From assembly GCA_964391095.1 (NCBI GenBank), contig CAYMJA010000004.1:1-56714 (forward strand): a stretch of 56,714 nucleotides of DNA, written 5' to 3'. Position 1 is the first letter of the stretch. Every line of letters begins with the position of its first letter. Origin of the DNA: an uncultured Candidatus Saccharibacteria bacterium (GTDB lineage Bacteria; Patescibacteriota; Minisyncoccia; Minisyncoccales; GWA2-38-27). Below the pieces are notes generated by a model. The model worked only from the letters and a program-made list of their open reading frames with translations. It did no database searches and was not told where the DNA came from. Positions 9,238 to 44,212 of this stretch are shown here, piece after piece. Position numbers and translations under genes: made by a program.

Positions 9238-10173
9238 ATGGAAAAGGACATAAAAAAAATAACAATAGAAAATAAAAACTACCCGAAAGCACTAAGAGAA
9301 ATTAAGAAGGTGCCGAAAACCCTTTATTTTAAGGGAGAGATAAAATCTAATGAACTCTGTTTTGCTATAGTGGGAACAAGAAGATGTTCTTCTTATGGAA
9401 AACAAGTAGCTCTGGAAATTGCTGGAAACTTGGCTGAAGCAGGAATTACTATCGTTAGCGGCTTGGCTCCGGGAATTGATACTTTTGCTCATACAGCCGT
9501 AGTTGAACAAGGAAAAAGAACAATCGCTGTACTCGGCACAGGCCTTGATGAAAAAAGTATTTATCCAAAAGAAAATATCAAATTAGCTAACAAAATCGTT
9601 GAATTAGGGGGCTGCCTGATTTCAGAATATCCTCCGGGGACTCCGGGCAGCCGCTTTACTTTCCCTGACAGAAATCGAATAATTTCTGGCCTTTCTTTAG
9701 GCGCCTTAGTAGTTGAAGCTAAAGAAAAAAGCGGGGCTTTAATTACAGCAAATTATGCTCTTTCCCAAAAAAGAAAACTTTTCGCTATACCTGGTCCAAT
9801 CTATGCTTTAAACTCTCAGGGTCCTCATATCTTAATAAAAAAAGGGGCAAAGTTAGTTGACAATGCTAATGATATTTTGCAAGAATTAAACCTGCCCGCA
9901 TCGTTACGCTCGCCCGAAGATGCTGCATCGCTGCGAGCGGACGAAACGTTGCAGGCGGGTTTACTAACTCCGCCACCGCTAAGCCGAGACGGACCCCAAA
10001 CCCTTGAAGAAAATCTAATTTTAAATACTCTAAAAGAAGAGACCTTAGGGATTGACAAGATTATTGAGAAAACAAAATTAAAGGCAGCGACAGTAGCCAG
10101 TATTCTTACTGTTTTAGAAATAAAAGGAAGAATAAGAAATTTAGGGAGCAATATTTATGGGCTATCGCGCTGA
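9238..10173 (+). CDS. dprA: DNA-processing protein DprA (Smf)
   Basis: Rossmann-like core GLAPGIDTFAHTAVVEQGKRTIAVLGTGLD and FPDRNRIISGLS, plus a C-terminal winged-helix segment. Carries an in-frame GC-rich insert at 9891-9959. Confidence 0.9.
   Translation: MEKDIKKITIENKNYPKALREIKKVPKTLYFKGEIKSNELCFAIVGTRRCSSYGKQVALEIAGNLAEAGITIVSGLAPGIDTFAHTAVVEQGKRTIAVLGTGLDEKSIYPKENIKLANKIVELGGCLISEYPPGTPGSRFTFPDRNRIISGLSLGALVVEAKEKSGALITANYALSQKRKLFAIPGPIYALNSQGPHILIKKGAKLVDNANDILQELNLPASLRSPEDAASLRADETLQAGLLTPPPLSRDGPQTLEENLILNTLKEETLGIDKIIEKTKLKAATVASILTVLEIKGRIRNLGSNIYGLSR
9891..9959 (+). repeat. in-frame 69-nt GC-rich palindromic insert in dprA
   Basis: CCTGCCCGCATCGTTACGCTCGC...GCGAGCGGACGAAACGTTGCAGGCGGG, exactly 23 codons (LPASLRSPEDAASLRADETLQAG). 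Confidence 0.75.
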
Positions 10174-12354: not shown

Positions 12355-12438
12355 GCCGCGGTGGCGGAATTGGTTTACGCGTACGATTCAAAATCGTATA
12401 GGAGAAATCCTGTGTGGGTTCGAGTCCCACCCGCGGCA
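12355..12438 (+). tRNA. tRNA-Leu (anticodon CAA), long variable arm, CCA not encoded
   Basis: Hand-folded cloverleaf. Acceptor GCCGCGG/CCGCGGC. Anticodon stem TACGA/TCGTA with loop TTCAAAA. Variable arm AGGA/TCCT. T arm GTGGG-TTCGAGT-CCCAC. Discriminator A. Confidence 0.9.
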
Positions 12439-12559
12439 CAATGGAAACTTTAAGCGCTGGAAGTGCTTACAAATTTTCATTTTGGATGAGGATGTGGCGA
12501 GAATCCAACCTCCCGAATTGCGACGAGCGAAGTGAGGAGGTAATGCCTTCGGGCAACTT

Positions 12560-12580
12560 TTCGAGTTCCACCCGCGGCAC
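12560..12580 (+). repeat. direct repeat of the tRNA-Leu 3' end (20 of 21 nt identical to 12419-12439)
   Basis: TTCGAGTTCCACCCGCGGCAC compared with TTCGAGTCCCACCCGCGGCAC. The 120-nt interval between the copies is GC-rich. Confidence 0.85.
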
Positions 12581-12597
12581 TAGAACCACTTTTGAAT

Positions 12598-12626
12598 TTG
12601 ACAAAAAATTAGTATTCTGATATATT
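12598..12626 (+). promoter_or_regulatory. sigma70-like promoter TTGACA-17-TATATT
   Basis: TTGACA at 12598-12603 and TATATT at 12621-12626, upstream of the 12781 ORF. Confidence 0.55.
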
Positions 12627-12780
12627 GTAAATAAATAATAAATATCATTTTTGAACCTTAAAAAATAAAAAATATCAGAAAGGAAAGGAGATGAAAAAAG
12701 CTATATTTTAATCTTTGCGAAATTTCAGTCCGTGAGGACATTGGAAAGAAACTTAAAAGATAGAAAAGGAGGAATTACTT

Positions 12781-13074
12781 ATGGCTCGTTCAAGATTTAG
12801 CGGTAATGGAAAAGAAGAAGTTTTCGTAGTAATGACTAAAAATTTCAAGGTGTTTGTTGCCAACACTAAGAAAGGAATAAGGATGTGGATTAAGCAACGA
12901 GCTATTGCAAGGCATAATTTCGGCTTATTTCTATGCTGGCCTGATAAAAAAAACAACACGATAAGAATAACAACGATTGAAAGACCAAAGTTTTACCTAA
13001 CGAAGAAACGGCTTAATGCCTTAAGTGCTGCCTGTGTTTATTTTTTGACAAAACAAAGAGCACAAATGGAATAA
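12781..13074 (+). CDS. hypothetical protein (97 aa)
   Basis: Strong SD AAAGGAGG 8 nt upstream of the ATG and an intrinsic terminator 22 nt after the stop. No family recognised. Confidence 0.5.
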   Translation: MARSRFSGNGKEEVFVVMTKNFKVFVANTKKGIRMWIKQRAIARHNFGLFLCWPDKKNNTIRITTIERPKFYLTKKRLNALSAACVYFLTKQRAQME

Positions 13075-13095
13075 AATTTTGATTCTATCTCATAT

Positions 13096-13129
13096 AGGAC
13101 TTACGATATTAGTAAGTCCTCTTTTTTTT
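13096..13129 (+). terminator. intrinsic terminator
   Basis: AGGACTTAC-GATATTA-GTAAGTCCT followed by a run of eight T. Confidence 0.8.
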
Positions 13130-13220
13130 AGTTTTTCACTTCCACGACTATTTTACATATGTAAAATATTTACCCACAGAGACCTCGTCTCTGTTATTTC
13201 TCTGTTATTTTCCTCCATAT

Positions 13221-13257
13221 TAAAAAAAGGGACTGATATTTATACAACATCAGTCCT
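13221..13257 (-). terminator. intrinsic terminator of the 118-aa pilin-like gene
   Basis: On the minus strand, GGACTGAT/ATCAGTCC stem followed by TTTTTTT, 20 nt after the stop. Confidence 0.75.
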
Positions 13258-13277
13258 AAAAATTGAAGACCAATTCA

Positions 13278-13634
13278 CTATGGTTTACTACCTATTCCGC
13301 TTGCCCCAATTGTTTCACCTTCTTTGTACCTGATAAAGGTTTTGTCACCTACCATTGCGCGTTTGACTTCCCCTGTTTCTGAATTCTCAAGAATGAAGTA
13401 GTGAAGGTGACCACCTACTGAAGCGGGCACGCGTTCCCTCACAACCCAGCCATTCCACCCTTGAATGAACTTCTGAGTGAAGTCTTCAGCTTGTGAAGAC
13501 TTCCTGCGGTACAGAGAGACGCCGGATCTTACAAACATGATGGTTCCAATGATGAAAAAAATCATCAAAATGGCTACAATAACAAGCAATAGGTCGAGCC
13601 GATTAAACCCTTTTGATTTCCTCAAACTTTTCAT
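13278..13634 (-). CDS. small protein with degenerate prepilin-like N-terminal signal/anchor
   Basis: MKSLRKSKGFNRLDLLLVIVAILMIFF... has a basic leader, Gly, then a hydrophobic helix with Asp at +5. It shares its promoter, leader, N-terminus and RKSSQAE linker with the 13904-15220 gene. Confidence 0.6.
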   Translation of the reverse strand: MKSLRKSKGFNRLDLLLVIVAILMIFFIIGTIMFVRSGVSLYRRKSSQAEDFTQKFIQGWNGWVVRERVPASVGGHLHYFILENSETGEVKRAMVGDKTFIRYKEGETIGASGIGSKP

Positions 13635-13768
13635 AATTCATCACTCCTTTCTTGAATTGTCTTATATTCAGTTCTCAAAGAACTATTTTTTAGAAGATAC
13701 CATATTAAAAAATATCTGTCAAGTTTTTGTATAAGTCTGTTGTAGTTGTAAAAGATGCAAATTGTCAG
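13487..13768 (-). repeat. duplicated 5' module, copy 1 (promoter, leader, SD, signal/anchor, linker)
   Basis: Aligns by eye with 15088-15360. Long identical runs include TTCTTGAATTGTCTTATATTCAGTTCTCAAAGAACTAT and ATATTAAAAAATATCTGTCAAGTTTTTGTA. Confidence 0.85.
13694..13722 (-). promoter_or_regulatory. sigma70-like promoter TTGACA-17-TATCTT
   Basis: Reverse-strand TTGACA (13717-13722) and TATCTT (13694-13699). Duplicated at 15290-15318. Confidence 0.6.
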
Positions 13769-13841
13769 AGGATAGACCTTAGACACACTCCGACAGTTTT
13801 TTTCTACAAAGTTGTTTGAAAGCATATATTTTTACTTTGAT

Positions 13842-13875
13842 AAAATAAAAAAAGGTGGAGAACAAGTCTCCACCT
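13842..13875 (-). terminator. intrinsic terminator of the pilin-NamZ-like gene
   Basis: 9-bp stem AGGTGGAGA/TCTCCACCT with a 5-nt loop, followed on the minus strand by a T-rich run. Confidence 0.8.
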
Positions 13876-13903
13876 GAATTACTAATCGATTAAGCCGACT
13901 GAC

Positions 13904-15220
13904 CTAATCATAGAATAAATATTTTTTTCTTTTCTTCTTGAATTGCTCTAAGTCGCGCTGGTAACTTTGGACAATTTTTTCCGCAGGAACGCCCTTCTCC
14001 AGCATAAATCGTATCTTGTTTGTGCCGTTCGCTAAATCGAACATCCTTTTCCGCTTCTGAACACTCTCCAGTTTGAAATTGAATTTATCAGGGTACATCT
14101 TCATCAGAGTACCCATGATGTAGTATCCAACAGCAACAGGTTTAATCGTTCTTTCATCGGTAATGATTACCCTGACTCCTTGGCACAACTCGCCTTTATG
14201 GTGGAGATAGTAGGGTTTGAAATACATTGGTTGAAAATAAACCCCGGATAGCTTCAATGCATTTAATGTTTTTGAAAATTCTTCTGCATTTATCCAGGGA
14301 GCGCCAACCAGTTTGAATGGCAAGGTATAACCAACTCCAATATTTACTATCGGGAGCTCTCCCATTATGCCCGTAATGGGAAGAAACAATGCTGTGTCCA
14401 TTTCAGGAACGTGGGGTGACGTTGGAGTCCAGACAAGACCAGTGTTTCTCCAAGCCATGTCCCTTTTCCAGCCCTGCATCTTCACAACTTTCAGGTCGCA
14501 ATTAATCTCGCACTCCTTGTTAAAATATGTTGCGAGTTCCCCTATGGTCATTCCATGGACATAGGCTATTGGAGCTATTCCAATGAAAGACTTGAACTCT
14601 GGGTCAAGAACAGGACCACCTACAACCCATCCACCTATGGGATTGGGCCTGTCGAGGACGATGAATTTAATCTTATGTTCAGCCGCAGCTTCCATACAGT
14701 AGTACATTGTAGAGATATAGGTGTAGGATCTTGTACCAATATCCTGAATATCAAATATCAGGACATCAATGTTTTTCAACATTTCTGGGGTTGGTTTTCG
14801 GGTTTTTCCGTAAAGACTGTAAACGATTATACCTGTTTTTGGGTCTTTACTTCCTTCCACTGTTCCATGTACCCCGCCCCGGATGCCGTGCTCAGGGCCA
14901 AATAAAGCCTTAAGTTCAACACCAGGAAGCAAGGCAATGCGGTCAGCACTTGGACACAGATTGCTGTCCACACCAGTAGGATTAGTAACCAAACCGACCC
15001 TTTTACCCCAGATTAGATCTCGCTTCTCTTCTACAAGTACTTCAATACCCAGTTTTACAGCCGGTCTGAGTTTTACAGCCGGTTTCTCAGCCTGTGAAGA
15101 CTTTCTGTGCTCCAGAAAAGTGGGTATTGCAATCGCAGCAAGGATTCCAATGAATGTAATAACAATCAATAGCTCAATCAGGGTAAGCCCTTTTCTCTTT
15201 CTTTCTCTCAAAGTTTTCAT
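13904..15220 (-). CDS. prepilin-type N-terminal domain fused to a DUF1343/NamZ-like (exo-beta-N-acetylmuramidase family) domain
   Basis: N-terminus is KRKG-LTLIELLIVITFIGILAAIAIPTF. DUF1343 motifs: LVTNPTGVD, LFGPEHGIRG, TGIIVYSLYGK, DVLIFDIQDIGTRSYTYI, VLDRPNPIGG, HGMTIGELA. Confidence 0.8.
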   Translation of the reverse strand: MKTLRERKRKGLTLIELLIVITFIGILAAIAIPTFLEHRKSSQAEKPAVKLRPAVKLGIEVLVEEKRDLIWGKRVGLVTNPTGVDSNLCPSADRIALLPGVELKALFGPEHGIRGGVHGTVEGSKDPKTGIIVYSLYGKTRKPTPEMLKNIDVLIFDIQDIGTRSYTYISTMYYCMEAAAEHKIKFIVLDRPNPIGGWVVGGPVLDPEFKSFIGIAPIAYVHGMTIGELATYFNKECEINCDLKVVKMQGWKRDMAWRNTGLVWTPTSPHVPEMDTALFLPITGIMGELPIVNIGVGYTLPFKLVGAPWINAEEFSKTLNALKLSGVYFQPMYFKPYYLHHKGELCQGVRVIITDERTIKPVAVGYYIMGTLMKMYPDKFNFKLESVQKRKRMFDLANGTNKIRFMLEKGVPAEKIVQSYQRDLEQFKKKRKKYLFYD

Positions 15221-15360
15221 AAGTCATCACCTCCTTTCTTGAATTGTCTTATATTCAGTTCTCAAAGAACTATCAAACATCTATTTTTCAAGATAGCATA
15301 TTAAAAAATATCTGTCAAGTTTTTGTACAAGTTTATCGTAACTGTAAAAGATGCAAAATT
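15088..15360 (-). repeat. duplicated 5' module, copy 2
   Basis: Paralogous to 13487-13768. Extends from the RKSSQAE linker codons through the promoter to the stop codon of the PAP2 gene. Confidence 0.85.
15290..15318 (-). promoter_or_regulatory. sigma70-like promoter TTGACA-17-TATCTT
   Basis: Reverse-strand TTGACA (15313-15318) and TATCTT (15290-15295). Confidence 0.6.
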
Positions 15361-15884
15361 TAATTAAAACCCTTTGATTTTTGCAAAGCAGGCAGAATTC
15401 TATAAATTAGCCAACCAGAGAATATTCCAACCGCAGCTCCAGCTAAAATATCTGAGGGCCAATGGATACCGATAAAAATCCTGGCTAAACAAATCAGAAA
15501 ACTGGCTAAAAAAAATAAAAGTCCTGCTTTTTTGTTGTAAAAATAAACAATAGTAGATATTGCAAAAAAGAAAGCAGCATGACCAGAAGGAAAAGCAGCA
15601 GTATTGTGGGTGATAAGCAAATTAACATTATTTTCTACAAATGGTCTTGGTCTTTGCCAAATCCAACGAATAAAATTAACAATAACTAATCTTGCCAAGA
15701 TAGCTGAAATAATTGCCTGAAGAACCATCTTCCAATATTGCTTGAACTTTATCGCTAAAAACAAAAACAAACAAAAGACCAAGACATATTCAAAATATTG
15801 AGCAAAGAAAATTCCTAAAACATTTAACCAGAACCATTTAAAAGCAAATTGATTTATTTGTTGAAAAATATATAAATCCATCAT
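15360..15884 (-). CDS. PAP2-family phosphatase (undecaprenyl-diphosphatase-like)
   Basis: Membrane protein with acid-phosphatase motifs RPRP, PSGH and ARIFIGIHWPSD. Confidence 0.8.
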   Translation of the reverse strand: MMDLYIFQQINQFAFKWFWLNVLGIFFAQYFEYVLVFCLFLFLAIKFKQYWKMVLQAIISAILARLVIVNFIRWIWQRPRPFVENNVNLLITHNTAAFPSGHAAFFFAISTIVYFYNKKAGLLFFLASFLICLARIFIGIHWPSDILAGAAVGIFSGWLIYRILPALQKSKGFN

Positions 15885-18775: not shown

Positions 18776-19504
18776 TTAATGAAAATTCTTTGAGGCCTTA
18801 AGAAACCGAGAAAACTTTATGATATCTGCAGGATTGCCAAAATCTATCCAATGATCTTGAATTTTCTTTACCCTCACCTTTCTTTTTTCTGCCAGAAGGC
18901 TAACTACATCAGTGATTTCATATTCTCCTCTTGGAGATTTACGAATCTTCGGAAGTTTATCAAACACCTCCGGAGTAAATTTATACAAACCAGTATTAAT
19001 TAAATTCCCGATATGTTTTTTGGGTTTTTCCACAATTCTTTTCAAAAATCCGTTGTCAGCAATAAGTACTCCGTATTTTTCGGGCCGTTGATGATAGAAA
19101 CCAGCGACATAATTATATTTCCCTTCAATATTCAGAGCTTGAAGGTCTTTTACCGAGTAAAGATTATCGCCGCAGACAAACAAAAAATGCTCTCTGCCAA
19201 CGATATCTTTAATGCATTTCAAAGGACAGGCAGTGCCATATATTTTCTCTTTTCCTCCTAAAATTTTGAATTGATTAACAATTGTTGCTTTGTACTTGTA
19301 TTTCTTAAGAAACTCCCTCATCATCTCTGCTTTATAACCCACGACCAAAATCAATTCCCTGTAACCAGCTTTTAAAAGATTATCTAAAAGATAACCCAGA
19401 AAGGGTTTCTTCTGGACTCTAATAAGATGTTTAGATTTATTCTTGCTGAGATGCAGCATCCTGGTTCCCTGGCCAGCAGCCGCAATCACTACTTTATTAA
19501 TCAC
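18776..19504 (-). CDS. sugar-phosphate nucleotidyltransferase (NTP_transferase family)
   Basis: N-terminal VIAAAGQGTRM signature; size typical of the family. Confidence 0.75.
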   Translation of the reverse strand: MINKVVIAAAGQGTRMLHLSKNKSKHLIRVQKKPFLGYLLDNLLKAGYRELILVVGYKAEMMREFLKKYKYKATIVNQFKILGGKEKIYGTACPLKCIKDIVGREHFLFVCGDNLYSVKDLQALNIEGKYNYVAGFYHQRPEKYGVLIADNGFLKRIVEKPKKHIGNLINTGLYKFTPEVFDKLPKIRKSPRGEYEITDVVSLLAEKRKVRVKKIQDHWIDFGNPADIIKFSRFLKASKNFH

Positions 19505-23516: not shown

Positions 23517-24407
23517 TTAGCCGAGAAAGCCAGAAGCTGAGCCACAGTCCCGATGGGAATGGCCGCTGGCCCCGATACAGCTGAACTCAGGCCTCCCGAC
23601 ACCCCAGAAGAAGCAAGGGCAGCTGTCAAACAGGTTACTAACACTAGAAAAGTACTCGCAGCCGGCACAATATATGCTAAGATCTCCGTCCTTCTGTAAT
23701 CGCTCAGGATTAACCAATAAGATGGTGCTTACTGCATAAGGACCAAGTCCAAATTCGTTGGAAGAGAACATTACTCGGGCCCTTCGTACTGAACGACCAC
23801 GGTGACGTAGACCTGTTTGGACCGGAATAACTAAGAAATCCCCTGGGGTTTCTTTTTCCAACTTAGCAATGGCCCGTTGAGTTCTCCCAGTCAGGCGCAG
23901 GTATTTTGGACCAAGTTCGCCTTCTTGGTAGTTAAACCAATCCTCACGAGATTGAGCCATTAATTTGGTCATCAAGACCGTAGCATCATTGTAAGAACAG
24001 GCTACTTTGGATGGTTTGGGAATAACAAATAGTCCATCAGCTCCTTCAGGAAGTTTGAAGAAATCTTTGATAATCTCAGCCATTTTATTTACCTGACTGG
24101 CATCAAGCGCTCTAAACTCCTCAATCTGTTGAAGAACAGCAAGTTGGTCAGGAACACTCTTGGGGTGCCAACCTTCGGGATAACCATAAGTTGATTCCAG
24201 TGCTTCATTGGCATAGGGCAACTCACCCAACTTTTGAAGAATAGAAGTGATTTCTCTCTGAAAATCACCTCCTGCCTCAATTACTCTTTGGACACTATCT
24301 CCACCCAGACCGCTTTTACGTAAAGCTGCTTCAAGCAGTTCCTTGACCTTGGCTATTTGGCCATCAGTCATTTTCTCTTGTGGCGTGATCAATGTATCCA
24401 TTGTCAT
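23517..24407 (-). CDS. hypothetical protein, G+C-rich orphan with Cys-rich C-terminus
   Basis: 296-aa ORF with no family recognised. It has its own promoter, SD (AAAGGAGGG) and terminator. The second ATG at 24401 has better SD spacing. Confidence 0.55.
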   Translation of the reverse strand: MTMDTLITPQEKMTDGQIAKVKELLEAALRKSGLGGDSVQRVIEAGGDFQREITSILQKLGELPYANEALESTYGYPEGWHPKSVPDQLAVLQQIEEFRALDASQVNKMAEIIKDFFKLPEGADGLFVIPKPSKVACSYNDATVLMTKLMAQSREDWFNYQEGELGPKYLRLTGRTQRAIAKLEKETPGDFLVIPVQTGLRHRGRSVRRARVMFSSNEFGLGPYAVSTILLVNPERLQKDGDLSIYCAGCEYFSSVSNLFDSCPCFFWGVGRPEFSCIGASGHSHRDCGSASGFLG

Positions 24408-32762: not shown

Positions 32763-34086
32763 TTAATTTTTCTCTTAAAACTTTAATTAAATCTTTAATT
32801 TTTAGTCTCTCTTGTTTCATTGTATCACGGTCGCGAAGAGTAACATCTTCTTGTTTCAAACTTTCAAAATCAACTGTAATTGCCCAGGGAACTCCAATTT
32901 CATCCACCCTGCGATATCTTCTACCGATTGAGCCGACTTCATCATATTGGCAGACAAAATAAGGTTTTAATAGTTGATAAACCTCTTTTGCTTTTTTTAC
33001 CAGTTTTGGTTTGTTCTTCACTAAAGGCAAAACCGCTACTTTAATTGGAGCTATTTTTTTATCCAGTTTAAGTAAAACTTCCGTTTCTTTAGTTGCTTTT
33101 GTTGTCTTAGTTCTTCCTTCTCTTATCTCCTGATAGGCATCACATAAAAAAGCCAAAAAACTTCTATCTACACCAACTGAAGTTTCAATAATATAAGGAA
33201 AATATCTCTCTCTGGTTTCTTCATTATAATATCTTAAATCTTTGCCTGAGGCTTTGGAATGGTTAGATAAATCAAAATCTCCTCGGTTATGAATTCCTTC
33301 AATCTCTTCCCAACCAAAAGGAAATTTATATTCAATATCTATTTGCTGCTTGGCATAATGAGCTCTTTTTTCTGCTGGAACTTCTATTGCCCTTAAATTC
33401 TCTTTTTTAATCCCAAGATTCTTGTACCATTTTATTCTTTCTTCTTTCCAAAAATTAAAATATTTTTTGGCTTGTTTTGGCTCACAAAACCACTGCATCT
33501 CCATTTGCTCAAATTCTCTGGTTCTGAAAATGAAATTTCTAGGAGTAATTTCGTTTCTAAAGGCCTTTCCAATCTGAGCAATCCCAAAAGGAATTTTCAT
33601 TCTCATAGAATCTAAAACATTCTCAAAATTGACATAAATACCTTGGCAGGTTTCTGCTCTCAAATAAGTTGTGGCCGCTTCATCTTCAACTGGTCCCACA
33701 AAAGTTTTCATCATTAAATTAAACTTACGGGCTTTTATCAGTTCTCCCCCACAATCCGGACACTTATGAAGTCTTGCGATTTCGTCTTGACGAAATCGCT
33801 TATGGCATTTCTTACACTCTACTAATTCGTCAGCAAATCCAGCAGTTAAGTGCCCAGAGGCCTGCCAAACTTTAGGGCTCATTAAAATTGCTGCATCCAA
33901 ACCAACAATATTTTCTTGCATTTGAACCATTTCTTTCCACCAAGCCCTCTTGACATTATTTTTCATCTCTCCCCCCAAGGGACCAAAATCATAACAAGAC
34001 TTAAATCCGCCATAAATCTCTGAAGACTGAAAGACAAAACCCCGACGTTTACACAAAGAAATAATTTTTTGCATTAAATCCTCCAT
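32755..34086 (-). CDS. glyQS: glycine--tRNA ligase (alpha2 type)
   Basis: Class II motifs, a Cys cluster CKKC...CPDC and a C-terminal anticodon-binding domain. Confidence 0.95.
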   Translation of the reverse strand: MEDLMQKIISLCKRRGFVFQSSEIYGGFKSCYDFGPLGGEMKNNVKRAWWKEMVQMQENIVGLDAAILMSPKVWQASGHLTAGFADELVECKKCHKRFRQDEIARLHKCPDCGGELIKARKFNLMMKTFVGPVEDEAATTYLRAETCQGIYVNFENVLDSMRMKIPFGIAQIGKAFRNEITPRNFIFRTREFEQMEMQWFCEPKQAKKYFNFWKEERIKWYKNLGIKKENLRAIEVPAEKRAHYAKQQIDIEYKFPFGWEEIEGIHNRGDFDLSNHSKASGKDLRYYNEETRERYFPYIIETSVGVDRSFLAFLCDAYQEIREGRTKTTKATKETEVLLKLDKKIAPIKVAVLPLVKNKPKLVKKAKEVYQLLKPYFVCQYDEVGSIGRRYRRVDEIGVPWAITVDFESLKQEDVTLRDRDTMKQERLKIKDLIKVLREKLNG

Positions 34087-35801
34087 TATTCTATAACTCG
34101 ACCCATTTCTTCGCTCACGGTTGGGTCATCCGGTAAAGTAGTATCTATGGCAGAAGCAGATGCTTCAACAATTGTTTCTGTCCACTGATCTTCACCGCTA
34201 ATCCTTGCTTCTTTAATAATCGGCAAAACCTGACCCCTCTGTCCAGAAAAAGGAGTTAAAGCAACCTGAAAAGCGATATTTGGGGCTGGATTCAAAATCC
34301 CTGTTCCCGCCGTCATAACCTCACTATCTCTCACTGTCCAAACAATTTCCCTGCTCTGGCTGTCGTAGGTGAATTTTGTGTTTTCCTCTTCAGGAAAAAT
34401 TTTACCAGTTAATCTTACACTAGAAGGCAAAATTGCTTTTACTTTCACATTTTTAAGATCATTATAATAATTCTTTGCCTGCCAAATTATGGTATAAGTA
34501 GTAGATTCCCCAACTTTTGGGGGCAGGGGTCCTGAATTTCCAAAAACCTCCTCTTGATAGTAACCCTTCTGGGAAATGACTACCTTTGAATTTATTTTTG
34601 TTTCAAATTCTTCTCTTATTTGAGAAATCAAAACCGTATTTCTTAAAAGGACATTTTTTTCTTGAGGACTGCTAATTTCCCATTTTTCTTTTAGGTTTAT
34701 CCAAAATTCAACTTTATCTTCCTCTCCCTGCCCCAAAAAGCGCAGTTTATTATTATCTCTCCAATCCCAGAGTATAGAATTATCTCCCTTATTAAACTGG
34801 CCAGAATTAAGTTTTAGACTATCAAAATCAAAACCTTTACCCTCTAATCTCGCCACTAAAAATAAATCACTAAAAGGTTCCTCTCCAATATTCCTAAAGT
34901 AAATTTCGTAATGAAGTAAATCTCCGGAATTGGCAAGATATTGATTTTGATTGTTTATCCGTTGGAAAACAAAAAGACGAGGTTTTGTGATTTCTACACC
35001 TCTTGTTACTTCTTTTATCGGAATAAATTCATTTTCTAACCAAATACCAAGAACAGCTCGGAAAATTTTTTGTTCTTTAAGCTCTCCTAACAATTTTCCT
35101 TTAATTCCAATTCTTCCTCCGGCAGCTTTGTTTAAAAGAGGAATCTCCCATTCCGTTTTCTCCAATGTTTCGGGTTCGCTGTCCAAAAATTCAAAACCTG
35201 AGGGATATTCAATTTTTATTCCAAGATTACTGAGAGGATAATCTAAGCTGGAAAAATAATTCAAAGAAAATTTGAAATCCCTGCCGGTTTCTACTCTTGA
35301 GGGAAGGTCAAACTCAAGAGTTAAAGGAACTGATTTGATTACAGTAGTAAAAGTAGTGGTTGACTCATAGCGGGCTTTTAAATTCTTTGGTTGATAACTC
35401 AACCAGGCCTTAGCCATCTTTACTTCATTTTCTTTTCCAAAAAGCCTTCCTTTAAACTGAAAGGTTTTTTCTTCACCAGGATAAATATCTCCCAATTCTT
35501 CCGGTCCTATTTCTTGTCTTCGGGAAAGATTTTCTTCTCTACCAGCTTCATCATCCGAAGAAGCAGCTAATAAAGTATATTCCGGAAATTCAAAAATAAG
35601 CTGGGGTTCTTCTAATCTAACATTGCCATTATTTTTATATTTTACAGTGTATTCAACTTCCTGAAGAACTGCTGTTTCTTCAGGACCTAAAATTTCCAAT
35701 TTCAGAATTTCCTTTGAGTAAGGATTTCTTTGCCAATACCAAAAACCAGCTGCCCCAAGAACTAAAAATAAAATTATGATAAAAAGAATAAACTTCTTCA
35801 T
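34086..35801 (-). CDS. hypothetical membrane-anchored or secreted protein
   Basis: N-terminal TM helix followed by about 540 aa of beta-rich sequence. No family recognised. Confidence 0.6.
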   Translation of the reverse strand: MKKFILFIIILFLVLGAAGFWYWQRNPYSKEILKLEILGPEETAVLQEVEYTVKYKNNGNVRLEEPQLIFEFPEYTLLAASSDDEAGREENLSRRQEIGPEELGDIYPGEEKTFQFKGRLFGKENEVKMAKAWLSYQPKNLKARYESTTTFTTVIKSVPLTLEFDLPSRVETGRDFKFSLNYFSSLDYPLSNLGIKIEYPSGFEFLDSEPETLEKTEWEIPLLNKAAGGRIGIKGKLLGELKEQKIFRAVLGIWLENEFIPIKEVTRGVEITKPRLFVFQRINNQNQYLANSGDLLHYEIYFRNIGEEPFSDLFLVARLEGKGFDFDSLKLNSGQFNKGDNSILWDWRDNNKLRFLGQGEEDKVEFWINLKEKWEISSPQEKNVLLRNTVLISQIREEFETKINSKVVISQKGYYQEEVFGNSGPLPPKVGESTTYTIIWQAKNYYNDLKNVKVKAILPSSVRLTGKIFPEEENTKFTYDSQSREIVWTVRDSEVMTAGTGILNPAPNIAFQVALTPFSGQRGQVLPIIKEARISGEDQWTETIVEASASAIDTTLPDDPTVSEEMGRVIE

Positions 35802-43404: not shown

Positions 43405-43854
43405 ATGAAAATCTTAGCGGAGAATAAAAAGGCCTATTTTACTTATCAAATCCTGGAAAAGTTTGAGGCAGGGATGATTTTGATTGGCCAGGAAGTAAAA
43501 TCAATAAAATCAGGAAAAATGAGTTTAAAGGGTTCTTATGTGGTTTTAAGGGGAGAAGAGCCGTACTTAATCGGGGCTAATATCCCTCCCTACCAGCCAA
43601 AAAACGCGCCTTCGGACTATGACCCGGAAAAATCCAGAAAACTTCTTTTAAAAAAATCAGAAATCAAACATTTAATCGGGAAAACAAAGGAAAAGGGATT
43701 GACCTTAGTACCCTTGAAAATTTATACGAGAGGTGCTAAAATAAAGCTTGAATTTGGAATTGCTAAAGGAAGAAAAAAATTTGATAAAAGAGAGTTAATT
43801 AAAAAAAGAGAGGCCAAAAGAGAAATAAAAAGAGAATTAAAATCGCGGGGATGA
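43405..43854 (+). CDS. smpB: SsrA-binding protein
   Basis: NKKAYFTYQILEKFEAG, GQEVKSIK and a basic C-terminal tail. Followed by the tmRNA gene. Confidence 0.95.
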   Translation: MKILAENKKAYFTYQILEKFEAGMILIGQEVKSIKSGKMSLKGSYVVLRGEEPYLIGANIPPYQPKNAPSDYDPEKSRKLLLKKSEIKHLIGKTKEKGLTLVPLKIYTRGAKIKLEFGIAKGRKKFDKRELIKKREAKREIKRELKSRG

Positions 43855-44192
43855 ATAGTTTCGACAGAAGATTTTACTAAAATAGCGCAAACCGAGCATT
43901 CTCAAACCTCGTTAAACCTTGAGAAACAATAAGTGCCAACTTATTTCAAAAACCTGCGTTAGCATACGCTTAACGCCATCCGATTCGCCAATTCTCGATA
44001 AGCGAAGAGGGTGTTATAATATCGAGATAGATAATTATTTCTTACCTCAAAAACAATTATTGAACCAATAGAGGTTGAGATATTAAGATTTTTGTCTGTT
44101 TTCCACTTAGTATCTCAAAAACAAAAACGGACTAAGTTTGTAGAACTGTTTTAGTAAAACTTCTGGATCCGAGTTCAACCTCGGCATCTCCA
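43847..44192 (+). ncRNA. ssrA: tmRNA (SsrA)
   Basis: 5' GGGGATGAATAGTTTCGAC and 3' GGATCCGAGTTCAACCTCGGCATCTCCA. Acceptor GGGGATG/CATCTCC with a G3:U wobble. Tag frame 43935-43973 reads ANLFQKPALAYA-stop. CCA is not encoded. Confidence 0.85.
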
Positions 44193-44212
44193 CAACTATA
44201 TCTATAGAAAAA

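Follow-up and report, generated by a model that had tools for sequence, protein, structure and literature searches.

The DNA considered here is a stretch of 56,714 nucleotides (nt), called the window below, which is contig CAYMJA010000004.1 (GCA_964391095.1) of an uncultured Candidatus Saccharibacteria bacterium; all positions are those of its forward strand. Two of its genes lie 270 nt apart on the minus strand (Table 1). Gene A encodes a small protein with a prepilin-like N-terminal head and an orphan C-terminal part, and gene B joins a prepilin-type head to what by sequence is an entire peptidoglycan glycosidase of the NamZ (GH171) family. The two genes share their heads together with the promoter and 5' untranslated region (UTR) that precede them. 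We believe, with moderate rather than strong confidence, that one partial duplication or illegitimate recombination put this promoter-leader-head module in front of two different cargos, and that the outcome would be co-expression of the two genes and anchoring or display of NamZ at the cell surface.

Repeat finding, MAFFT and segment-wise alignments were used to delimit the shared block, which measures 277 nt in copy A and 272 nt in copy B. Its homology ends sharply on both sides. Upstream, the best local alignment has a score of 8, equalled in 482 of 500 shuffles, and the 3' end of the PAP2 phosphatase gene next to copy B shows in local alignment no continuation of the homology, such as a larger tandem duplication would give. 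Downstream, identity falls to about 1%. Copy B reaches, at its upstream end, to within 2-6 nt of the PAP2 stop codon (15360-15362), which places this end at the edge of the island described below. The window contains exactly two copies each of the 43-nt leader and the 29-nt promoter, where shuffles lead one to expect none, and a chance origin of the repeat is therefore excluded.

Within the block, identity is a mosaic that varies element by element. The upstream 39 nt are identical at 33 positions (85%), the promoter at 28 of 29 and the leader throughout; the first codons of the heads then agree at about 73% of their nucleotides, and the DNA of the hydrophobic helix at only about 47%, with a 21-nt indel. 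A 9-nt indel also falls between the -10 element and the hairpin, where copy B is the longer, its extra 9 nt lying in an A-rich stretch at 15274-15289. At the end of the block the RKSSQAE codons match at 18 of 21 nt, and all three changes are synonymous. As proteins, the two heads are 40% identical (E = 3e-7). Their codons specify 20 identical residues, six of them with different codons, and 23 aligned residues that differ, so the duplication is not very recent.

The original prediction had placed this block at 13487-13768 and 15088-15360, nearly the coordinates that alignment recovers, and the elements that it listed (a TTGACA-17-TATCTT promoter, a 6-base-pair (bp) hairpin, a Shine-Dalgarno sequence, an MK(S/T)LR start, a hydrophobic helix and an RKSSQAE linker) are all present in the alignment. 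The end of similarity directly after RKSSQAE and the unrelatedness of the two C-terminal cargos were also seen correctly. The proposed length of about 270 nt holds as well, but the sharing is not uniform, since it ranges from a perfect leader to a strongly diverged helix. Had only a generic pilin helix been shared, the idea would have lost its ground; the likeness is instead strongest in the promoter and leader, which agrees with the claim that expression signals travel with the head.

Table 1. Positions of the genes, shared elements and neighbouring features of the locus
Feature	Position	Strand	Remarks
Gene A	13278-13634	-	118 amino acids; prepilin-like head and 68-residue orphan C-terminal part
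Gene B	13904-15220	-	438 amino acids; prepilin head and NamZ
Shared block, copy A	13485-13761	-	Upstream 39 nt, promoter, hairpin, identical leader, head codons 13485-13634
Shared block, copy B	15086-15357	-	Promoter, extra 9 nt, hairpin, leader, head
Promoter of gene A	13694-13722	-	TTGACA-17-TATCTT, TG-extended -10
Promoter of gene B	15290-15318	-	TTGACA-17-TATCTT, TG-extended -10
6-bp hairpin, copy A	13670-13684	-	AGTTCT-TTG-AGAACT (gene sense)
6-bp hairpin, copy B	15257-15271	-	AGTTCT-TTG-AGAACT (gene sense)
Identical 43-nt leader	A 13644-13686; B 15231-15273	-	43/43 identity
RKSSQAE linker, copy A	13485-13505	-	From alignment
Prepilin-type head of gene B	15086-15220	-	MKTLRERKRKG/LTLIELLIVITFIGILAAIAIPTFLEH-RKSSQAE (slash, predicted cleavage site)
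18-nt tandem duplication	15050-15085	-	KPAVKL and RPAVKL, 16/18 identical, at the head-NamZ junction
NamZ/GH171 catalytic part, residues 46-438	13904-15085	-	From Pfam, PDB, alignment and model
Intrinsic terminator of gene A	13230-13256	-	11-bp stem, then T-run
Intrinsic terminator of gene B	13853-13875	-	9-bp stem, 5 GC pairs, then T-run
Lineage-specific island (orf97, gene A, gene B)	12440-15359		2.9 kb; from synteny and blastn
tRNA-Leu(CAA), left island border	12355-12439	+	ARAGORN; Rfam 60.8 bits
PAP2-family phosphatase, right island border	15360-15884	-	Pfam PAP2 4.1e-22; kept in relatives
orf97	12781-13074	+	Small gene; near-consensus extended -10 promoter (TTGACA-17-TATATT) at 12598-12626; terminator at 13096-13120
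Direct repeat of the last 21 nt of tRNA-Leu (12419-12439)	12560-12580	+	20/21 identical; from repeat finding and alignment

The conservation of the expression signals stands out against this mosaic. The single difference between the two promoters falls on the free 'n' of the TGn extension, the spacer holds a weak palindrome (ATATT-TTTT-AATAT), and the leader contains the Shine-Dalgarno sequence AAGGAG in both copies. Taken together, leader and promoter are identical at 71 of 72 bases; had they diverged as far as the neighbouring 39 nt (15%), one change or fewer in 72 would have a probability of P = 8e-5. Such identity may have been kept by purifying selection on a shared regulatory site or by homogenisation through gene conversion. 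Each gene has its own promoter and its own intrinsic terminator, and for this reason A and B are predicted to be separate transcription units with nearly identical expression signals. The possibility that the shared 5' UTR is a known structured or cis-regulatory RNA was rejected: Rfam gave no relevant match to the leader, even at E <= 10, and its folding did not differ significantly from shuffled sequences (z-scores of +1.08 and -0.95).

Gene conversion deserves separate consideration, because recent conversion patches between older paralogous 5' regions could produce the identity of leader and promoter with no regulatory selection at all. Identical tracts of 43 and 31 nt do lie amid indels and diverged sequence, and the copies are 1.6 kb apart in direct orientation. 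Furthermore, in one Logan contig from run X2 (window 13644-15260), upstream sequence of the A type is followed by the -10 region, 9-nt insert and leader of the B type, as in a recombinant. However, the switch in this contig occurs exactly at the shared 31-mer CATATTAAAAAATATCTGTCAAGTTTTTGTA, and since Logan words are 31 letters long, the hybrid is probably an artefact of the de Bruijn graph, with a real A/B recombinant as the less simple alternative. The identical tracts also fall on the functional parts of the region (-35, spacer, -10, hairpin and Shine-Dalgarno), and the only promoter difference sits at a free position. We therefore consider gene conversion as the sole cause to be somewhat unlikely.

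The Pfam matches of gene B are NamZ_N (3.7e-85, profile positions 1-202 of 203) and NamZ_C (1.4e-45), and it matches PDB 4k05, a DUF1343 structure, across residues 50-437 (E = 6.6e-116). When gene B is aligned with 25 homologues that are 50-71% identical to it, P109, E110 and H111 of the GPEHG motif are invariant in all 26 sequences, G108 is nearly so, and the other invariant residues of the family are likewise kept. The putative catalytic residue of Bacillus subtilis NamZ is Glu92, at the end of strand 2 (PMC8054146), and E110 would be its equivalent. Judged by its sequence, the protein is a complete NamZ/GH171 exo-beta-N-acetylmuramidase, a kind of enzyme that releases terminal N-acetylmuramic acid (MurNAc) from peptidoglycan fragments (PMC8054146). 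An AlphaFold2 (AF2) model with a mean predicted local distance difference test (pLDDT) score of 89 shows a helix at residues 14-41, a segment scoring under 50 (residues 41-50) and, after it, the compact enzyme, with no regular structure until about residue 55, a span that includes RKSSQAE-KPAVKLRPAVKL.

The head of gene B is a recognizable prepilin N-terminus. It scores 23.3 bits against PF07963 N_methyl (cut-off 21.2) and 22.2 bits against TIGR02532 (cut-off 16.3), thereby passing both curated thresholds. A short basic leader, Gly(-1), Glu(+5) and 21 hydrophobic residues with a conserved Pro are in place, with LTLIE after the cleavage site, and the whole reads as a typical PilA N-terminus (GFTLIELLIV..IGILAAIAIPTFL.QR.KAQ). 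Residues 6-49 match the N-termini of geopilin and PilA among PDB sequences, and RKSSQAE aligns with the start of alpha1-C in PilA-type pilins. A query with residues 1-100 returned ordinary pilins only, a search by which NamZ proteins were not sampled.

A comparison in the other direction, with the best 120 NamZ homologues, found the pilin motif in none of them; the protein of the window is alone in having one. Where the source names an organism, these homologues come from Sumerlaeota, Omnitrophica, KSB1, Calditrichaeota and similar phyla outside Patescibacteria. We read 16 of their N-termini by eye, without a signal predictor, and all 16 are ordinary hydrophobic Sec- or lipoprotein-like sequences, some with a Cys that suggests a lipoprotein. 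They then continue with '(K)KPxVKLG(I/V)EVL', and it is exactly there, right after RKSSQAE, that their homology to gene B begins. Because the pilin motif is missing from all 120 homologues and the 16 that were read have ordinary hydrophobic N-termini, we infer that the prepilin head replaces the usual Sec or lipoprotein signal of NamZ in gene B, and the modular head first noticed from the DNA alone would thus be a true swap. The B. subtilis enzyme is secreted via a Sec signal (PMC8054146). At the junction, the homologues have a single 'KPxVKLG' where gene B has two copies, and this short tandem duplication is possibly a scar of the joining event.

Both genes belong to a small island in an otherwise conserved neighbourhood. 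The order GlyA-FolD-PAP2-tRNA-Leu(CAA)-TopA is common to the window and its relatives, the closest of which, by FolD (up to 71% identity), are metagenome-assembled genomes of Patescibacteria labelled Nealsonbacteria, Patescibacteria group or "Saccharibacteria". In the window, 2920 nt separate PAP2 from the tRNA gene, versus about 80-120 nt in the related loci L005, L006, L016 and L018, and when the loci of relatives (80-84) were compared with the window by blastn, only the tRNA part of the island interval matched. Since the interval in relatives is short or filled with unrelated genes, the island is a lineage-specific, compositionally foreign insertion at a variable site. Its foreign composition is seen in the G+C content at third codon positions (GC3), which is 0.437 for the NamZ part and 0.449 for the gene A cargo, both more than 4 standard deviations above the genes of the window (0.287 +/- 0.033).

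Unrelated genes occupy the space between PAP2/FolD, tRNA-Leu and TopA in L008 (9300-10780), L009 (9350-11515), L021 (9164-10348), L018 (9330-10282) and L013 (8813-10618), and these inserts include 91-residue membrane proteins, proteins of 121-123 residues, a NUDIX-like open reading frame (ORF) and a 338-residue protein. Because relatives hold such different and unrelated genes there, the site is a recurrent insertion hot spot. The direct repeat copies only the 3' end of tRNA-Leu, at a distance of 141 nt on its downstream side, and does not flank the island; it is possibly the attachment-site scar of an integrative element, and no integrase was found. The third island gene, orf97, had no match in Pfam, NCBIfam, PHROGs or phage records. 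A phage origin of gene A and orf97 was considered and rejected, as neither matches phage records or PHROGs.

In the head of gene A (MKSLRKSKG/FNRLD...), a basic leader is preserved along with Gly(-1) and Phe(+1), and the helix carries a 7-residue insertion relative to that of gene B. Nothing significant was found for the protein in Pfam, NCBIfam, PHROGs, PDB sequences, Foldseek against PDB or phage records, although its top, non-significant PDB matches are geopilin N-termini. A single-sequence AF2 model (pLDDT 66) has a 47-residue helix at residues 12-58 followed by three strands, and it has no Foldseek match; as weak evidence, it suggests the outline of a small pilin, and gene A is possibly a mini-pilin. 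A reading of the cargo in some other frame can be set aside, since only the annotated frame is open.

Two contigs that come from other Joint Genome Institute (JGI) samples, L001 (4619 nt) and L002 (3423 nt), extend across both copies with an identity to the window of 99.98-100%, and exactly the same protein A is encoded on four other contigs. Logan contigs built with k=31 from the salt-marsh runs X1-X5 do break at the exact repeats of 43 and 31 nt, as expected, which is the one observation that an assembly artefact would have in its favour. Yet these repeats are short, diagnostic indels tell the copies apart, and separate assemblies from different samples reproduce the arrangement; an artefact is hardly credible.

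The original prediction had further envisaged an export head recombined repeatedly, across the genome, onto differing cargos. The presence of two cargos behind one head and the sharpness of both block boundaries are what such a process would leave behind. However, no third copy of the head was found in the window, either when up to three mismatches were allowed or when a pilin-motif regular expression was run across all ORFs. In the Logan runs, compared with the window at a likeness of at least 80%, all loose ends, and all pieces that reach into the promoter or leader, can be assigned to locus A or locus B. The additional pieces covering 15129-15194 come from pilin genes of other organisms, which diverge before both the leader and the linker. 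Two scans of viral contigs returned no copy of the head, and neither did two scans of metagenome contigs, the latter carrying little weight because they did not return the known copies either. The head is also absent by blastn from the 80-84 related loci. With only two copies in all these places, a head family serving many cargos is very improbable, and the proposed analogy with pilin families or polymorphic secreted proteins finds no support: the pattern is that of one partial duplication or fusion within a small, horizontally acquired island.

The favoured reading can now be set out in full. A 5' module of about 275 nt would be present twice through one partial duplication or illegitimate recombination inside a horizontally acquired island of a Patescibacteria (Nealsonbacteria-like) bacterium. 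This module would consist of an extended -10 promoter of the sigma-70 type and a 5' UTR of about 55 nt, in which a small hairpin lies on the 5' side and the Shine-Dalgarno sequence is strong; it would continue with a class III prepilin-type leader, followed by the alpha1-N helix, and end with RKSSQAE in the first turns of alpha1-C. One copy would head the orphan protein of gene A, and the other would take the place of the signal peptide, of Sec or lipoprotein type, in a foreign NamZ, exactly at the start of the mature domain. The direction of the event may have been either, with A as the donor or as a secondary copy.

The two proteins would then be co-expressed from nearly identical signals, and both precursors would insert into the membrane N-in, with cleavage after Gly by the prepilin peptidase (PilD) being probable. 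Type IV pilus genes, including PilD, are widespread in the Candidate Phyla Radiation (CPR), whose members have no PilQ and no Gram-negative envelope (PMC6744442; PMC11623550). NamZ would be displayed outside this outer-membrane-less cell, tethered by the pilin helix via a flexible linker of about 14 residues, and would either remain anchored in the membrane or be presented by a type IV filament at its tip. In this position the enzyme would remove MurNAc from non-reducing termini of peptidoglycan, and it is plausible that the sugar would be scavenged from a host or the surroundings. Export of the Sec or lipoprotein type would lose the enzyme to the medium in such a cell, whereas a pilin helix would retain or present it. 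A precedent for salvage is found in Tannerella, a MurNAc auxotroph that reportedly salvages MurNAc from the peptidoglycan of its neighbours with NamZ enzymes (10.1101/2021.12.02.470905).

Several observations weigh against this interpretation. The whole case rests on a single population. The perfect conservation of the leader may be explained by gene conversion with no regulatory function. The head of gene A has Asp instead of Glu at +5 and no match to the PF07963 or TIGR02532 models at E <= 0.1. Its C-terminal part has no homologue, and protein A matched only itself in a word-indexed search of 5.8 billion proteins and a full phmmer search of 1.84 billion representatives. Considering this degenerate head, the orphan C-terminal part and the low-confidence model, A may not be a functional pilin. 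In gene B, the model contains no globular pilin domain between the helix and NamZ, and for this reason its incorporation into the body of a filament appears unlikely. Lastly, no gene for PilD or other pilus machinery was found within the 56.7-kb window.

Some of these observations would be accommodated if the direction of copying were the reverse, with the pilin-headed gene B as the original and gene A as a young or decaying by-product, in which the promoter, leader and head of B were joined to unrelated foreign DNA and which may have no pilin function. That A is an absolute orphan in both protein collections agrees with such a history, as do the signs of decay in its head (no N_methyl match, Glu5 changed to Asp, the 7-residue insertion and 23 non-synonymous against 6 synonymous differences), the GC3 of its cargo, which is as foreign as that of NamZ, and the coincidence of the upstream end of the block with the island edge in copy B. 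Yet A retains an intact ORF, the sole open frame across its cargo, along with a good Shine-Dalgarno sequence and a terminator of its own, and its model suggests a long helix and a beta-sheet as in small pilins. In addition, the RKSSQAE peptide is fully conserved, its seven codons differing by synonymous changes only, which hints at constraint in both copies. We judge this reversed history to be unlikely, though it merits serious attention.

A different simplification would make the head an uncleaved N-terminal signal-anchor of type II topology, whose resemblance to pilins is merely historical and which has no link to prepilin peptidase or type IV filaments. The lack of a globular pilin domain in B, the degenerate motif of A and the lack of pilus genes in the window are all compatible with this explanation. 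However, B keeps all the hallmarks of PilD recognition and assembly and passes the curated hidden Markov model (HMM) cut-offs, and PilD is widespread in CPR (PMC6744442). A plain signal-anchor is thus rather unlikely in our view, somewhat more so than a reversal of direction.

At the bolder end, the promoter-leader could act as a control element that co-switches the mini-pilin A and a pilin-tethered exo-muramidase B, with the enzyme on a type IV filament or at its base, harvesting MurNAc directly from the cell wall of a host. We offer this as a speculation that is quite unlikely to be correct in its entirety. If true, it would amount to an 'enzymatic pilus' of an episymbiotic Patescibacteria cell, derived from recent tinkering with a horizontally acquired gene.

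The architecture of gene B can be placed among known systems with some precision. Modular pilins, in which a pilin motif is combined with domains unrelated to pili, represent a widespread strategy: an InterPro survey counted 1,219 such proteins in 264 architectures, many of them from CPR, with PilB and PilC of Streptococcus sanguinis as examples and the peptidases S74 and M26 among the modules (PMC8179133). Gene B likewise joins a prepilin motif (IPR012902/PF07963) to a pilus-unrelated domain, in the order N_methyl, NamZ_N and NamZ_C, and fits the operational definition of modular pilins (PMC8179133). Unlike them, it has no globular or complete pilin module, and the enzyme follows the alpha1 helix via a disordered linker. 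Moreover, in contrast to the published cases, its origin is visible here, where the same head, promoter and 5' UTR stand on the neighbouring gene. We take IPR008302 to be the InterPro accession of NamZ/DUF1343. A search of the published architecture table for this accession and for PF07075 did not find a NamZ/DUF1343 architecture (PMC8179133).

Because B has no globular pilin module, it is closer still to the archaeal class III non-pilins. The sugar-binding proteins of the Sulfolobus bindosome are described as having a class III signal peptide on a non-pilin solute-binding protein, and the likeness to gene B is a pilin-type signal and helix that brings a non-filament protein to the surface in a cell without an outer membrane (PMC3047682). 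The Sulfolobus system differs in being archaeal and in having a dedicated Bas assembly machinery; gene B belongs to a bacterium and has a glycosidase as its cargo, and the window showed no assembly genes. As an enzyme, gene B resembles other NamZ/GH171 proteins (B. subtilis YbbC, Tannerella NamZ1/2, PDB 4k05 and 4jja) in being full-length and keeping the Glu of the PEH motif, and differs from the B. subtilis protein in having a prepilin head where that one has a Sec signal. Reports of NamZ come mainly from Bacteroidetes, with a few further phyla, and Patescibacteria do not appear among those named (PMC8054146).

Two further comparisons concern the locus rather than the protein. Variation of the pilE/pilS type in Neisseria involves numerous cassettes, silent or alternative, and recombination that is still going on; the silent ones have neither promoter nor N-terminus. 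A constant N-terminal part followed by variable C-terminal parts is what our locus has in common with pilE/pilS and with polymorphic secreted proteins. However, there are only two copies here, both are complete transcription units, and no further cassettes were seen in the Logan contigs. The island as a whole resembles tRNA-adjacent islands in its position directly 3' of a tRNA gene, its foreign composition, its absence from relatives and the presence of other cargo at the same place in relatives. It departs from them in that no integrase was found and in that the sole repeat of the tRNA end is not at the PAP2 end but 141 nt away from the tRNA.

We therefore view gene B as a new architecture within the modular pilins and class III signal-peptide proteins. 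With the parental and derived forms side by side, the locus would show a bacterium with a reduced genome in the course of domesticating a foreign secreted enzyme, whose donor Sec signal would have been replaced by a pilin-type head that brought its promoter and 5' UTR along. The locus adds a GH171 peptidoglycan exo-hydrolase to the domains known to occur behind pilin heads, and it suggests a route by which Patescibacteria might obtain cell-wall sugars from other cells. As the case comes from a single lineage, it serves as an illustrative example and a lead rather than a new principle.

The window as a whole is a stretch of housekeeping genes, including ComEC, FtsZ/FtsA, several aminoacyl-tRNA synthetases, signal peptidase I, DprA, TopA, FolD, GlyA and GroEL. 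No MurNAc-salvage pathway was found within it; a nucleotidyltransferase at 18776-19504 was considered as a candidate MurU and rejected as generic. The competence genes ComEC (387-1925) and DprA (9238-10173) fit the lifestyle of DNA uptake and type IV pili described for CPR. Elsewhere, a 296-residue ORF on the minus strand (23517-24407) has the highest G+C content (0.462) and GC3 (0.404) among the genes of the window and no match in Pfam, NCBIfam or PHROGs, and may be a foreign or orphan gene. A 571-residue protein (34086-35801, minus strand) with weak matches to DUF11 and DUF7619 repeats is possibly a surface protein. A transfer-messenger RNA (tmRNA) gene at 43847-44193 encodes the tag peptide ANLFQKPALAYA.

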